Assembly: GCA_038153405.1 (NCBI GenBank)
Contig: JAYOYH010000066.1
Location: forward strand, 1-21,070
Direction of reading: 5' to 3'
DNA from: Gemmatimonadota bacterium
GTDB taxonomy: Bacteria > Latescibacterota > UBA2968 > UBA8231
Length of the DNA stretch: 21,070 bases
The notes beneath the pieces were generated by a model. It was not told where the DNA came from. It ran no database searches and was given only the letters and a program-made list of their open reading frames with translations. The position numbers were made by a program, and so were the translations under genes. Below are positions 2,927 to 14,663 of this stretch, in pieces (positions within the stretch are counted from its first letter, which is position 1; each line of letters begins with the position of its first letter).

Positions 2927-2998
2927 GAACGGCTCGTTCATACTCTGTTAAAACATGTGCAACTCTTTTAAAAACAGCTTTTAGGGAGGTTGATTGTA

Positions 2999-3484
2999 AT
3001 GAAAAAGGCAGCCCGTTCTGTCCTGCGCCGCATCGGTCCTGACAGCAACGTCGACAATCAGCGCGAGGCACTCTTGTCGCGCGAAGTAGAAGAGGCACAG
3101 GCGAAATTGCGCGAACGGAATGAGGGCGATTCTTCTCAGGTCTTTGAGGCGATTCCCGAAGAAATGCTGACCGAGTCGGAGAAGCGGCACGGCAAGTATC
3201 GACGCCAGCAAGCGCAAGCCGGGCGCTTTACACCGGCCGCCGACCGCCTGCCGATCATGACCAAGGAGGAGCGAGAGGCCCACAACAAGAACCGACCCAA
3301 ATGGCAGCAGACCCAATTTGAGGGTCCCATAGAGAAACTCATCGAGAAATACAAAGACCTCGACGAAGTGAGACGTCACCTTTCGCTGGGCCAAGCAATG
3401 AAGTACGAATTTACCGAAGACGGACGCGTGCTCGACCAAAAAGGCAATCTCATTTACGACGGCGAAAAATTGGTCAAGCCTTAA
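2999..3484 (+). CDS. Hypothetical charged cytoplasmic protein (161 aa)
   Basis: Long ORF with AGGGAGG SD at 2983-2989 before ATG 2999. No family recognised. Confidence 0.8.
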   Translation: MKKAARSVLRRIGPDSNVDNQREALLSREVEEAQAKLRERNEGDSSQVFEAIPEEMLTESEKRHGKYRRQQAQAGRFTPAADRLPIMTKEEREAHNKNRPKWQQTQFEGPIEKLIEKYKDLDEVRRHLSLGQAMKYEFTEDGRVLDQKGNLIYDGEKLVKP

Positions 3485-4814: not shown

Positions 4815-5912
4815 ATGCCCAGAAGGTTTAGGCCAGGTCACAGGGCTGCCGTTCTGGGCATTCTACTCCTTACCGCGCTATCGGCCTGTGAGATCGGCTA
4901 TTACAGCCATCTGGCCGTCGGCCAGGGGAAGATCCTTCTCAATACGCAGTCCATACACAACCTGCGTTCAACCCCCCATCTACCCGATTCGACCCGCAGC
5001 CAGCTGGCTCTGGTAGATTCGATTCTGGCTTTTGCCCAATCGCTGGGCCTCCACACGGGCGGCAGCTATACCGAATACTACGATACAAAAGGCCAACCGA
5101 TAAGCTGGAACGTGAGCGCGGCGCCCAAGGATGCGCTACAACCCCACCTTTGGCATTTTCCCATAGTAGGCAGCCTGCCCTACAAAGGGTTTTTTGAGCG
5201 CGAGCGCGCCGAACGCACCTTCGCCGACCTACAAAAAGCCGGCTATGACGCCTATCTGCGCCCGGTAAACGCCTACAGCACGCTCGGTTATTTCAACGAC
5301 CCTTTACTCAGCACCATGCTCGATGATCCGCCCGAAGCGCTGGCCGAAGTGCTGCTGCACGAATTGGCCCACGCGACGATTTTCGTCGACGGGCACACCG
5401 ATTTTAACGAGAGTTTAGCCACGTTTGTCGGTCAGCGCGGAACGCTGCTATTTATAGCGCAGCACTTTGGCAACGATACCTCACTCATCGACAAAGTGCA
5501 CGCTCAGCGTCGCGATGCGGAGCGCTTTCGCCTCTTTGTTGCCGGGGTAGTCCAATCACTCGATAGCTTATACTCGGCCGGACTCGCCTTAGACGAAGTT
5601 CTCGTGCGGCGCGAGGAAGTCTTTGCTGATGCTCAGACGCGCTTTCGCCCTACGCTCGGCCAATACGCCAATCCACGCTACGACTATTTTCTCACTTGGC
5701 AATTAAATAACGCGCGGTTGCTCTCCTTCAAACGCTATCAGAGCAAACAGGACCTTTTTGAACGCGTATTGAGCCTGCACGGAGGCGATATGAACGCCGC
5801 GCTGTCCGTCTTTGCAGCGTGCGGAAAAACGGACAGTCCTTGGAACTGTCTCGAACGGTCTGCGGTCGACCAGTCACCTGCGCCCCTCGATCAATCTCCT
5901 GAGCCGCAATAG
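4815..5912 (+). CDS. Putative Zn-dependent aminopeptidase lipoprotein (Aminopep/DUF2265-type)
   Basis: Lipobox LSAC; WHFPIVGSLPYKGFF, AYSTLGYFNDPLLST, HELAH (HExxH) followed by FNESLA (third-ligand Glu). Confidence 0.85.
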   Translation: MPRRFRPGHRAAVLGILLLTALSACEIGYYSHLAVGQGKILLNTQSIHNLRSTPHLPDSTRSQLALVDSILAFAQSLGLHTGGSYTEYYDTKGQPISWNVSAAPKDALQPHLWHFPIVGSLPYKGFFERERAERTFADLQKAGYDAYLRPVNAYSTLGYFNDPLLSTMLDDPPEALAEVLLHELAHATIFVDGHTDFNESLATFVGQRGTLLFIAQHFGNDTSLIDKVHAQRRDAERFRLFVAGVVQSLDSLYSAGLALDEVLVRREEVFADAQTRFRPTLGQYANPRYDYFLTWQLNNARLLSFKRYQSKQDLFERVLSLHGGDMNAALSVFAACGKTDSPWNCLERSAVDQSPAPLDQSPEPQ

Positions 5913-6933
5913 ACCCTGGTGTTCTGGCTTGGTGCGCAGCCCATCAGCCACAATCCGGCCTGCCCGCTTCCACTGGCCCAGCTCCAGCAGCGCGAGTGCA
6001 AGGCTTTCATAGGCGGCAATATACAGGGGTTGATCGGCGATGAGCTGCTCTAATTGGGCGACCCCGTCCTGCGCGTTACCGCCCTCGATCTCGAGTAGGG
6101 CGAGAGCCCGGCGCCCCTTTGCATAGTCCGGGTTGCGCCGAACAACTTCACCGTAGCATGCGCGCGCCTTTTCGTATTGGCCCCTACCGAGATACAGTGC
6201 GCCCAGATTATAGCGCGCATCCGCAAAATTAGGATAAATCTGCAGAGCTTCGGCATAGGCCTTTTCGGCCTGATCTTCGAGTCCGTTGCGATGCAGCGTC
6301 AAAGCCAATCCGTAGTGTGCACGCGCGCTCCCCGCTGCCGCTCAACAAGAGAAGGGCAAACAACAATCCGCTCTCTTTTGCCATCGTCGAAGCGAGCAAA
6401 AGGCCCCATGTACATCCCCAACGCAAAGGCGATAGTACGCCTGTTTTAGGCGCGCTATCCCATACTAGCCACCCACCTATTCCGAGGGCAAATGCGAGCA
6501 GTTCAGCCCTGCCAACTATGCCGGCTACCGCTTCGACTAACAGCGGGTTGCATAGGAATAGAGCAGACGCATAAACAGCCGATGCCCGGTTAAGGCGAAG
6601 GCGAACGAGTGCAAAGAGTAGGAGGGCGTTTACGGCATGGAGGGCGACGTTGACCAGATGAAAAGGCCCCGCCTGCAATCCACCAAAGGCTACATTGAGG
6701 CCATAGCTAAGTGTTGTTAAAGGCCGGTAAAGTCCATTGGTATCGTTGTTCCAATAACTATTGCTTAGCATGCCAGCCCAATCGAGGCGAACCACTGCGC
6801 TATTCTCGACGATGATGCCCAAGTCGTCATAGCAAAATTCAAAGCCCGCGGTCTGTCCGTATAGGGCTAACGCAACGAAACCCACACAAAGCGAATAGCG
6901 AATAGACCAAGTGTCGATGTCTTTACCACGCAT
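5874..6933 (-). pseudogene. TMTC-like GT-C membrane glycosyltransferase/TPR gene, split into two frames with apparent internal deletion
   Basis: 6229..6933 has FCYDD, YRPL, HLVNVALHAVN, GRAELL and KES motifs, then turns non-homologous. A different frame (5874..about 6341) reads AAAGSARAHYGLALTL...ADARYNLG (TPRs), is preceded by TGA and lacks a convincing SD. Confidence 0.6.
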
Positions 6934-12000: not shown

Positions 12001-13188
12001 TTACATAAATTTATTTATATGGCAATTAATATAGTCCAACACCTGCTTTCCGCCCGCGCACCCCACTCCACCGGCAAAGTCGAATCCCAGTGCATGCACC
12101 TCTACATCGCCCACGTGTAAAATCCCCGGTTTCATTCTATCGTGTGGATAGAGCAGAAAACCGCACCGCACACCCAGATGCACGGCATAGGCGGCCATTT
12201 GCTGAACATCAGCCGGCGACGGCAGTAGGTCGAGCTTGTATTTGGTATCGAATACGGCACGTGGAGCCCCCGTTTGCAGGTCTAGTAGAGCAAGGTCGAT
12301 GCGAAACGACAGTGGGTGGCTGCCTGGCACCGCGACCTGCCACTGTCGCTTTACCGCATAGCGATCGGCGTAGTGGTCCACCATCCACTGCGCCATACAC
12401 GCTTCATAGAGCGACGGCATGTGCAGTATAAAGGGGGTTATGCGCGCCAAACCGCGCCCAATTCCCGGCCCGCTTCCTTCGAGAAAGAATCGACTTAAGT
12501 AGTGCAGCGGCGCGTAATCGGCTCTGCTGCGGCCGTAGGACAATCGAAGCATCTTCTGCCCTCCTACCGGCTCTAGCCCGACCTGTGTGGCCAGCGTCCT
12601 ATACAGGCGCTTTAGCCGCTGCTGCAGAGGGCCATTCCAGGGCATGGTGCACAAATGGTGCAGCGCCCACAGCGGCACTTGGTTTATGAGGTGATCCGTC
12701 CCCCCCTCGGCAAAGCGGTAGCGCAGAGACCAGGAGCTGCGGAAATCGGGGCCCACGATTTTGCCGCGCAGCGGCGTCCCGGCGGCTTGTCTTTCCGTGA
12801 AATCCCAAGCCAATCCTCTCCGCAGCCGCGCCTGCATTAATTCGATAAATTCCTCTGCCAGCGATGAGGCAATGCCCTCGAGAGATTCTGTTGGCACCGA
12901 TCCGCGCATCCAGCGCATCTTACCCAGTTTGTAGGCATAGTCCAACATACCCCAAACGGATGCGCAGGACACCTTGGGCACCACGTGCAGGACGGAATCC
13001 TTGTTCAGGGGAAATAGGCCAATATACCCCCTCGAGCGCAGGCTGTAGTAGCGCTGCGGACCCAATACCTCAAGGCGAAGCGATACATAGGAAGCGTAAT
13101 GGGTCGCGATGCGCTCCGCTGCGCCCGGAGCCAACTCCTCCTCAGCAATGGAGATGGCTCCCTCCTCTACGATGGAAAAAACCCTCAC
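12001..13188 (-). CDS. mcrC: McrC-family PD-(D/E)xK nuclease subunit
   Basis: GYIG..PKV...MLDYAY, PLRGKI, FILHMPSLYE, RIDL...FDTKYK, DVQQMAAYA. GTG start overlaps the mcrB stop (GTGA). Confidence 0.85.
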   Translation of the reverse strand: MRVFSIVEEGAISIAEEELAPGAAERIATHYASYVSLRLEVLGPQRYYSLRSRGYIGLFPLNKDSVLHVVPKVSCASVWGMLDYAYKLGKMRWMRGSVPTESLEGIASSLAEEFIELMQARLRRGLAWDFTERQAAGTPLRGKIVGPDFRSSWSLRYRFAEGGTDHLINQVPLWALHHLCTMPWNGPLQQRLKRLYRTLATQVGLEPVGGQKMLRLSYGRSRADYAPLHYLSRFFLEGSGPGIGRGLARITPFILHMPSLYEACMAQWMVDHYADRYAVKRQWQVAVPGSHPLSFRIDLALLDLQTGAPRAVFDTKYKLDLLPSPADVQQMAAYAVHLGVRCGFLLYPHDRMKPGILHVGDVEVHALGFDFAGGVGCAGGKQVLDYINCHINKFM

Positions 13189-14663
13189 GCCCCGTGGCCC
13201 AACTCGGCCAAACGGTTTTTAACACCTTCCCAGCGATAGCGCTCAACCGCTTCGGGAAATTCGTATAGAGCTTCGTCGAGATAGGGCTCTATCTCAGAAC
13301 GCCAGATATCTTCCAACACCTCGGGCAAACGCGCCCCATCCTGCAAAAAAAACGAGATGCCCAAGAGCCGATCTTCGCTGTCAATCAGGGCGTTAATCTC
13401 CTCTACCAGCGCGATTAACGGCTGAGGGTCCAACCCCCAGTTGCGCAGTGCTTGGGCGAGGATAGCGAAGTTGGGACTGAGTCGCACAAAGGCGAAGCGG
13501 CGAATCAGAGCCTGGTCGACGGCAGCAATAGAGCGATCTCCCCCGTTCATCGTCGCGAGAATAAGAACGTTGGGAGGAACGGAAAATAGCTGCCCGCTGG
13601 CCGACAGCCGAATCGTCTCGTCGCGATACTCCAGAAGGTAGAGCAATTCGCCAAAAACCCGCGCGATGGGGGCCCTGTTGAGCTCATCAATAAAAAATAC
13701 GTGGTTCGCTTGGGGATTTGCTCGCGCCCGTTGACAGAACTGCAGAAACGTTCCATCGGCATATTCATAAAAGGTCTTGCCCCCTTGTTGGCGCGGCCGC
13801 AGCCCCCGTATAAAGTCCTCATAGGCTGTGGCGGGGTGAAATTGCACCGTTTCGACCGACCCACCGTTTTGTCCGGCGATCCATTGGGCAAAGTGGCGGG
13901 CGACAAAGGTCTTGCCCGTTCCCGGTGGACCGCTGAACACGAGGTGTTTTTTTCGCAAGAGCAGCCGTTGCCAGCGCTCTACCTCAGCTTGCGCATAGCC
14001 TGTTTTTTTAAAGAGTTCCCCTGTGCTTGCGGTCAAATTGCCCCCTTTCACTACGGACGAATCTCCGGCATAGAGGCGCATGGCCACTACAACTGACTGC
14101 ACGCGTGTTGCCCAGGCGTCCTCCGATAGAACCGGCCGCATATTGCGCGCGCGGAAAGGCCGAACCTTTTGCAGACCTACGCCCCGCTGTTTTTCTACGG
14201 ATACGGGGTCTATTTCATAAGCGCGGAATACGGTCAGCCAGAGCGCAGCGCACCGTTGGGCAGCCCACGCACGCAGAGCAGTGCCTCGCCAGGGCGTCAA
14301 CTCTTCGGCCAGCGCGCCGATGGCTTCCGCGTCATCCAATCGGTAATGCGCATAGGGCACGGCAACGAGCGAACATTGGTTTTCGCTCTGGCCGCCCAAT
14401 GAGCGCGCCCGTTCTGCATCGATGAAATCTTCCGCCCGCCACCCAGCCGGTGCCTTGGCAACGTAATAGCAGGCCCTTTCACCGCCCATAATGGGCACGG
14501 GGTGGAGCATTTTAAATCCGCGGATAAGGGAGACCGTGCTCCCCGCTCGCATCGCCTTCACTTCTGGCAGCGGCCTTCTTAACACCTGGACATAGGGACC
14601 TGCAAGCGGCTTGGACAGCCGCAGCCGCAGGGGTTCCAATTCGTCTACTGCACTGTAATTCAT
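13185..14663 (-). CDS. mcrB: McrB-family AAA+ GTPase with a DUF1802-like N-terminal domain
   Basis: Walker A GPPGTGKT, VQFHPATAYEDFI, Walker B FFIDELNRA, FGELLYLLE, McrB NxxD motif TMNGGDRS, LIRRF. AGAGGG SD 7 nt before ATG 14663. Confidence 0.88.
   Translation of the reverse strand: MNYSAVDELEPLRLRLSKPLAGPYVQVLRRPLPEVKAMRAGSTVSLIRGFKMLHPVPIMGGERACYYVAKAPAGWRAEDFIDAERARSLGGQSENQCSLVAVPYAHYRLDDAEAIGALAEELTPWRGTALRAWAAQRCAALWLTVFRAYEIDPVSVEKQRGVGLQKVRPFRARNMRPVLSEDAWATRVQSVVVAMRLYAGDSSVVKGGNLTASTGELFKKTGYAQAEVERWQRLLLRKKHLVFSGPPGTGKTFVARHFAQWIAGQNGGSVETVQFHPATAYEDFIRGLRPRQQGGKTFYEYADGTFLQFCQRARANPQANHVFFIDELNRAPIARVFGELLYLLEYRDETIRLSASGQLFSVPPNVLILATMNGGDRSIAAVDQALIRRFAFVRLSPNFAILAQALRNWGLDPQPLIALVEEINALIDSEDRLLGISFFLQDGARLPEVLEDIWRSEIEPYLDEALYEFPEAVERYRWEGVKNRLAELGHGA

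Follow-up and report, generated by a model that had tools for sequence, protein, structure and literature searches.

A McrBC-type gene pair in a Latescibacterota genome with a divergent DUF1802 domain of predicted ASCH fold as the putative target reader of McrB

The stretch of DNA analysed here (the window) is 21,070 nt long and represents one entire contig (JAYOYH010000066.1) of assembly GCA_038153405.1, a genome of the Latescibacterota that is 93% complete. Its minus strand carries two adjoining genes resembling mcrB and mcrC, the components of the McrBC restriction system. The mcrB-like gene (13185..14663, minus) starts with ATG and encodes a protein of 492 aa that is comprised of an N-terminal domain of predicted DUF1802/ASCH type, a linker and a McrB-family AAA+ GTPase. 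The mcrC-like gene (12001..13188, minus) starts with GTG and encodes a protein of 395 aa with a McrC N-terminal region followed by a PD-(D/E)xK nuclease. The TGA stop codon of mcrB and the GTG start codon of mcrC overlap by 4 nt (13185..13188, minus), which is consistent with translational coupling of the two genes. A first-pass annotation, made from the sequence alone, had described an overlapping mcrB-mcrC pair with GTPase and nuclease motifs and had quoted motifs from the McrB N-terminus; both open reading frames (ORFs) were located with their motifs intact, and the quoted N-terminal motifs were found in the translation of mcrB. By tblastn, no second copy of mcrB or mcrC was detected in the window's genome at its 93% completeness.

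The GTPase domain of McrB occupies aa 228-478 (13230..13982, minus) and matched the GTPase of E. coli McrB with an E value of 1.4e-41. The protein also matched Pfam AAA_5 (E 1.2e-21) and the NCBIfam McrB model PRK11331 (E 2.3e-39), the latter with 135 bits, far under the equivalog cut-off of 637 bits. Walker A (aa 245-252), Walker B (aa 325-330), the MNxxDRS signature (aa 372-378) and the double-arginine motif (aa 385-390) are complete in all 95 full-length McrB rows of our alignment, a set in which the window protein is counted twice and one genus dominates. McrC matched the Pfam McrBC family PF10117 (E 9.4e-19) and PRK09736 (E 6.6e-11), and phmmer returned no solved McrC structure with a sequence match to it. 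Its nuclease active site, D298, D314-x-K316 and Q330-x3-Y334 (12187..12306, minus), is invariant in 16 of the 16 aligned sequences. A conserved Y-x-R-x4-Y block contains R220, a candidate counterpart of E. coli Lys157, the basic residue that stimulates the McrB GTPase. The pair thus has the layout of McrBC, i.e. a McrB-family AAA+ GTPase and an adjoining downstream mcrC with activator region and nuclease, together with a fused N-terminal domain in the specificity slot (200 aa, folded in the model described below) and an operon free of methyltransferase genes. The features of the CoCoNuT branch, an NxD motif variant and fusions with long coiled coils, were not found: MNxxDRS is present in 95 of 95 rows and the linker is about 30 aa long. 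By these sequence-level tests of membership the pair is predicted to work like McrBC.

The N-terminal domain (about aa 11-200; 14064..14633, minus) is the putative target reader, and the first-pass annotation had judged it to be DUF1802-like. Taken alone, the first 200 aa of the window McrB gave zero matches in Pfam, NCBIfam and PADLOC, no match in the ESM Atlas or among shorter proteins, and no match to the DUF1802 model at E<=1 (PF08819, Pfam gathering cut-off 25 bits); an alignment profile of the domain found no solved structure by sequence either. Since the window protein alone matches nothing, its link to DUF1802 is visible only via orthologues and profiles. When the Pfam DUF1802 model was run over 168 genomes of the phylum, 10 were hit: in seven the match was a stand-alone gene, and in three it was an ORF of about 480 aa that is orthologous to the window McrB. 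Orthologues above the cut-off scored 25.2, 26.6 and 28 bits, and 16 of 25 aligned N-domains, the window's own not among them, matched DUF1802 at E<=1 (best 2.4e-6). Comparison by hhalign of the N-domain profile with six stand-alone DUF1802 proteins gave a probability of 93 and an E value of 3.4e-7 over 159 columns. A reciprocal profile search of 1.84 billion representatives returned 31 matches, of which 16 sequences were inspected and 19 scanned with Pfam, the remaining short high-scoring ones being taken as orthologue fragments. The non-orthologue matches numbered six, five of them DUF1802 proteins above the cut-off. The sixth, a repeat protein (P0028), was dropped as a false match. PF28529, a family listed for the window McrB, was ruled out as the family of the N-domain, as one protein (P0042) has the whole N-domain yet lacks PF28529 and the last ~60 residues. 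We concluded from these sequence comparisons that the N-domain is a divergent relative of DUF1802 and not a member by the cut-off; the assignment of the first-pass annotation therefore stands as a relationship, through orthologues, hhalign and reciprocal profiles, and not as membership of the window domain itself, which remains below the Pfam threshold.

The closest bridge to DUF1802 is P0023 (E 1.2e-17), a protein of 530 aa with DUF1802 at residues 199-349. Unannotated regions flank its DUF1802 domain, and by eye the C-terminal part may be EVE-like; a search for its genomic context returned nothing. A separate search for long fusions yielded P0119 (403 aa), in which DUF1802 is fused to an HSDR_N nuclease-type domain, so that a fusion of DUF1802 to a nuclease does exist; the first-pass annotation had suggested such fusions for cyanobacteria. 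The nearest Atlas cluster of P0119 is archaeal and auto-named predicted restriction endonuclease. In this search 7996 candidates were scored and 85 of 86 rows were orthologues, so other DUF1802-McrB fusions may exist. The stand-alone DUF1802 genes of other families of the phylum (L016, L019-L022) adjoin, by eye, lipoate synthase-like and GWxTD-type genes, a non-defence context.

The AlphaFold2 model of McrB residues 1-200 has a mean pLDDT of 87, and its best match in Foldseek was ZmASCH, with an E value of 1.2e-3 and a probability of 1.00. When 48,161 chains were compared with VIA-align, ZmASCH again came out on top (5guq; Z 8.7, rmsd 3.4, 121 aligned), followed by CXorf40A/EOLA1 (6kir; Z 7.5), YqfB (9kyf; Z 7.1) and TRIP4 (Z 6.5), and the top five rows were all ASCH-family proteins (Z 8.7-6.0). 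As a control, the model of a stand-alone DUF1802 protein retrieved the same top three chains with Z scores of 8.3, 8.1 and 7.4. EVE and YTH proteins aligned to the N-domain model with Z 3.3-4.6, under the ASCH proteins, with no EVE or YTH match in Pfam; the N-domains of the archaeal McrB proteins 6P0G and 6N0S gave Z 3.4-3.5. E. coli McrB-N was not among the matches listed (50 structural rows), where a likeness is still possible. The sequence identity of the N-domain to the ASCH proteins is 8-12%. The agreement in family across rows and across both models, despite middling Z scores, supports a predicted ASCH-type barrel. A PUA-like fold had been anticipated for this domain, and the two separate structure models support it, with ASCH rather than EVE or YTH proteins as the best matches.

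ASCH proteins carry the octapeptide G-x-K-x-x-[E/T/S]-x-R, whose Lys and Glu/Thr are required for hydrolysis of N4-acetylcytidine (ac4C) according to the accessible parts of PMC6803910 and bioRxiv 10.64898/2026.02.27.708502. The equivalent stretch in the window McrB, mapped by spacing and position and not by superposition, is aa 41-48 (14520..14543, minus). All 95 full-length McrB rows keep G41 and R48 unchanged, and in the same rows position 43 is T/A/C/S and position 46 is I/L/V, so the full octapeptide is not present. The five stand-alone DUF1802 proteins that span this stretch are also without the Lys and the Glu/Thr. Because the positions of the catalytic Lys and Glu/Thr appear, in this mapping by spacing, to be hydrophobic or small, we infer that the N-domain binds rather than hydrolyses its ligand. 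Six aromatic and basic residues, R30, R48, F80, W125, W133 and W142, are invariant and could line a pocket.

To understand the history of the pair, we examined its distribution and surroundings. The N-domain profile matched 40 of the 168 phylum genomes, all within the window's family, including 39 of its 75 other members. The pair is carried by 30 of 31 genomes in genus g14, 4 of 5 in g13, 3 of 7 in the window's own genus (g1) and the single genomes of g4 and g11. Among the 26 records returned by a g14 query, 23 are labelled Ca. Latescibacterota/Latescibacteria and 3 Gemmatimonadota. In the window the pair is flanked by a mandelate-racemase-family gene and mltB (Pfam). At 15 long loci SLC13, mltB or purB lies upstream in all 15 and the TRAP gene dctM downstream in 13. 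In the non-carriers dctM was located in 8 of 10, and all 8 have the same neighbourhood with the pair absent; the genomes with the site otherwise intact include two congeners of the window genome. Neither in the window nor at the 15 long loci, where the conserved annotated neighbours were covered, does a cognate methyltransferase adjoin the pair. Promoter and terminator counts equalled the shuffled expectation.

The GC and GC3 contents of the pair match those of the neighbour genes. In FastTree trees built from 16 McrB and from 16 McrC sequences, the genera grouped as they did in a tree made from four of the neighbouring genes, congruence being judged by these shared groupings and not by a topology test. 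Recent horizontal arrival was rejected on these grounds, GC, GC3 and congruent trees. In six g14 genomes the N-domain had a Nei-Gojobori omega of 0.25, the GTPase one of 0.15 and McrC values of 0.11-0.17, compared with 0.06-0.16 for five neighbours; larger sets gave 0.20, 0.12 and 0.11-0.12 for the three parts of the system (one or two divergent rows were left out, and the pairs are not independent). In two g13 genomes mcrB is frameshifted at the conserved site (L068 in G019, L057 in G153), which suggests ongoing loss or assembly errors. Since the trees are congruent, selection is purifying, and frameshifts and clean absences occur at one site, the sequences indicate a system that is old, vertically inherited, maintained and dispensable. 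With the queries used, no copies of the pair were found on plasmids or phages, one relative on a viral contig being reported without a returned locus. One stand-alone DUF1802 gene was found on a 2.7-Mb Paenibacillus replicon. A single sparse metatranscriptome (0.09 word share, 8 of 30 bins covered) had no contig over mcrBC and is uninformative on expression.

The carriers in g14 coexist with abundant host DNA methylation genes. C5 methyltransferase matches occur in 25 of the 30 g14 carriers, with up to 12 per genome; D12-class matches in 24 of 30, with up to 9 per genome in the genus (G123-G152, G020); and N6/N4 matches in 31 of 31 g14 genomes, with up to 23. These matches are not copy numbers. 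Very large repertoires of DNA methyltransferases are a feature of these g14 genomes. In the window genome (G000), two matches are of the N6/N4 class and four are to N6_Mtase. Generic reading of 5-methylcytosine (5mC) is argued against by the g14 carriers, because most of them have matches to C5 methyltransferases, which carriers of a broad 5mC reader such as E. coli McrB should avoid. The constant place of the pair among housekeeping genes and the many methyltransferases of its hosts, neither of them visible to the first-pass annotation, narrow down which ligand is likely.

How the pair might act can be proposed from McrBC as described in the accessible parts of PMC7680126 and PMC12707154: McrB assembles into hexamers on GTP, McrC attaches to the ring, speeds up GTP hydrolysis and makes the cut, and McrB's N-terminal domain, which occupies the specificity slot in every characterised McrB, sets the target. 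We favour the reading, with a probability of roughly 0.5, that DUF1802-McrB and McrC form a restriction system in which a non-catalytic ASCH-fold reader directs cutting to phage-type modified foreign DNA. The DUF1802 domain would act as this reader, its barrel cavity would take up a flipped base, and the nuclease would be steered to foreign DNA bearing a modified base that the host methyltransferases do not make, most plausibly a phage hypermodification, i.e. a hydroxymethylated or further decorated base. A reader role is favoured because the domain occupies the McrB specificity slot and the motor and nuclease motifs are intact. A phage-type mark is favoured over a context-limited methyl mark because of the methyltransferase load of g14 and the precedent of BapA of the Brig3-BapA operon, an ASCH-like defence protein that removes glucose from glucosyl-5-hydroxymethylcytosine (glucosyl-5hmC) phage DNA (PMC13160076, accessible parts). 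Modification-dependent restriction in all, whatever the mark, is quite probable. Both the modified-base reader and the type IV restriction function are what we infer from sequence, model and analogy. More tentatively, and with less than even confidence, DUF1802 may be a non-catalytic ASCH-type reader of phage hypermodification on several effectors (McrB here, HSDR_N in P0119), and the pair may have become fixed early in the family at a core site of the chromosome because the mark is never made by the host methyltransferases.

Several observations weigh against the favoured reading. The locus is no defence island, and the pair matches its neighbours in GC content. Defence genes are seldom kept as widely as here, in 30 of 31 genomes of one genus. 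Foldseek gave no PDB match at E<=0.001 for the N-domain model, and the best Z score (8.7) is barely above the level that VIA-align calls common. In addition, C5 methyltransferase matches are zero in the window genome and its three carrier congeners, so that plain 5mC may be the mark for the window protein. Methyltransferase genes might also not be expressed, or their products might work in different contexts. Finally, most of the ASCH proteins that have been characterised have RNA or ac4C as their substrate (PMC6803910, bioRxiv 10.64898/2026.02.27.708502), and in 2024 the ASCH domain as a DNA reader was called unconfirmed (PMC11037411), both as stated in the accessible parts of these sources.

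The rather unlikely alternative that ranks highest is ordinary type IV restriction in which DUF1802 reads 5mC, N4-methylcytosine (4mC) or N6-methyladenine (6mA) in a narrow context that host methyltransferases avoid. Four g1 carriers, the window genome included, have no C5 matches and one g1 non-carrier has one. Common marks are read by E. coli McrB (RmC) and by T. gammatolerans McrB (6mA) according to the accessible parts of PMC7680126 and PMC12707154, and those of PMC4738411 predict ASCH domains to be 6mA readers. However, selection has conserved the g14 reader (omega about 0.20-0.25) despite large and variable C5, D12 and N6/N4 sets, with which such a reader would often be self-targeting.

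The steady retention in g14 could alternatively, with lower probability, reflect a domesticated housekeeping machine, a DNA-repair or cell-cycle factor for damaged bases or DNA structures like the McrB-derived PcdA of Staphylococcus. The single copy at a fixed site among purB, pyrH, mltB and TRAP genes, the trees congruent with those of neighbour genes, the omega values near the neighbours', the retention in 30 of 31 g14 genomes, and the lack, with the queries used, of plasmid copies or of any returned from viral contigs would all suit it. However, PcdA has lost its McrC partner and has degraded Walker motifs (PMC10602043, accessible parts), whereas both are intact here, and many relatives, including the two congeners, are without the pair at an otherwise intact site, with two g13 genomes frameshifted.

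Lower still do we place the possibility that the domain recognises something other than a modification of DNA, and binds an unmodified site, RNA, or a free modified nucleotide that triggers the nuclease. The accessible literature describes LlaJI-type McrBC relatives that recognise unmodified sites (PMC12707154), ZmASCH acting on RNA and YqfB and EOLA1 acting on ac4C (PMC6803910, bioRxiv 10.64898/2026.02.27.708502), and a PUA-domain defence system that is reported to sense m6-dAMP. On the other hand, the window and the conserved annotated neighbours at the 15 long loci show no cognate methyltransferase accompanying the pair, McrC is a standard DNA nuclease, and MNxxDRS is kept in McrB, not the NxD of the RNA-targeting CoCoNuT branch (PMC11090510). 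A non-functional remnant subject to drift where the site is neutral, which the frameshifts in G019 and G153 and the lack of an RNA contig over the genes in the one sparse metatranscriptome might suggest, is extremely improbable and largely refuted by selection data, with omega 0.11-0.25 in all parts and catalytic residues invariant across genera.

The favoured reading, a DUF1802 reader of phage-type marks on McrB, would add to the McrB readers described in the accessible parts of PMC12707154, which are SRA/DUF3578, YTH, EVE and B3. DUF1802 is absent from the main text of PMC7641849, and DUF1802 and ASCH are absent from the main text and four supplements of PMC11090510. No ASCH- or DUF1802-McrB fusion was found in the accessible parts of PMC7641849, PMC4738411, PMC11037411, PMC7680126, PMC12707154, bioRxiv 10.64898/2026.08.31.748284, PMC10602043, PMC10853773 and PMC12191111, a brief mention elsewhere being possible. 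Searching full texts for the family (DUF1802, PF08819, COG4293) turned up one paper, a soil gene-network study, the accessible part of which notes homology to ligase and endonuclease domains. The putative DUF1802/ASCH reader is thus of a type not found on McrB in the literature searched, reader swapping itself being well known. ASCH domains have long been predicted to be modified-DNA readers for restriction enzymes, without direct proof (PMC11037411, accessible parts), and a DUF1802-McrB with intact motor and nuclease offers a cleavage readout by which to test this prediction and to assign the ligand of DUF1802. The value of the pair lies in this directly testable reader class and in its unusual fixed, vertical history. 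If a phage hypermodification is read, the system could be a reagent for detecting that base, and the reading, if true, would account for the lasting fixation of a restriction system in methyltransferase-rich genomes.

Three other features of the window were recorded. Three tRNA genes, Pro(CGG), Pro(GGG) and Arg(CCG), lie at the start of the contig (23-331, minus). A membrane-plus-TPR gene (5874-6933, minus), 564-571 aa long in two relatives, is split here into ORFs of 234 and 144 aa in different frames, with residues 194-412 of the relative unmatched. A gene at 2990-3484 (plus) encodes a protein of 164 aa without significant Pfam match, is 64-81% identical in relatives and keeps adjoining mreB and an aminopeptidase gene there.

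Compared with known systems, the pair shares with E. coli K-12 McrBC (6UT6, 6HZ4) the two-gene layout, the GTPase motifs and the McrC PD-(D/E)xK nuclease, but differs in that the E. coli reader is DUF3578/ADAM, to which the window N-domain has no sequence match, and in that carriers of the window type coexist with many C5 methyltransferases. With YTH-McrB of T. gammatolerans (6P0G) and EVE-McrB of S. marinus (6N0S; census in PMC7641849) it would have in common a PUA-superfamily barrel in the McrB reader slot, although the model matches these at Z 3.4-3.5 versus 7.1-8.7 for ASCH proteins. The ASCH proteins ZmASCH (5GUQ), EOLA1/CXorf40A (6KIR), YqfB (9KYF) and TRIP4 share the predicted fold and the Gly...Arg octapeptide spacing after the first helix, whereas the window domain is apparently without the catalytic Lys and Glu/Thr and is fused to a restriction motor. 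For BapA, too, an AlphaFold 3 model gives an ASCH-like barrel, used against phages on DNA that is hypermodified. BapA differs in that it stands alone, as a glucosyl hydrolase with two barrels, and has a glycosylase for a partner; it is set beside DUF1802 by its description in the accessible parts of PMC13160076 only. In the predicted operons of Orc/Cdc6, ASCH-REase and triple-wHTH proteins (PMC10853773, accessible parts), ASCH is similarly proposed to be the modified-DNA reader of a restriction nuclease; there, however, it is the nuclease that bears the reader, with an NTPase of Orc/Cdc6-like type and no mention of McrB in the main text, whereas in the window pair the putative reader sits on the McrB motor.

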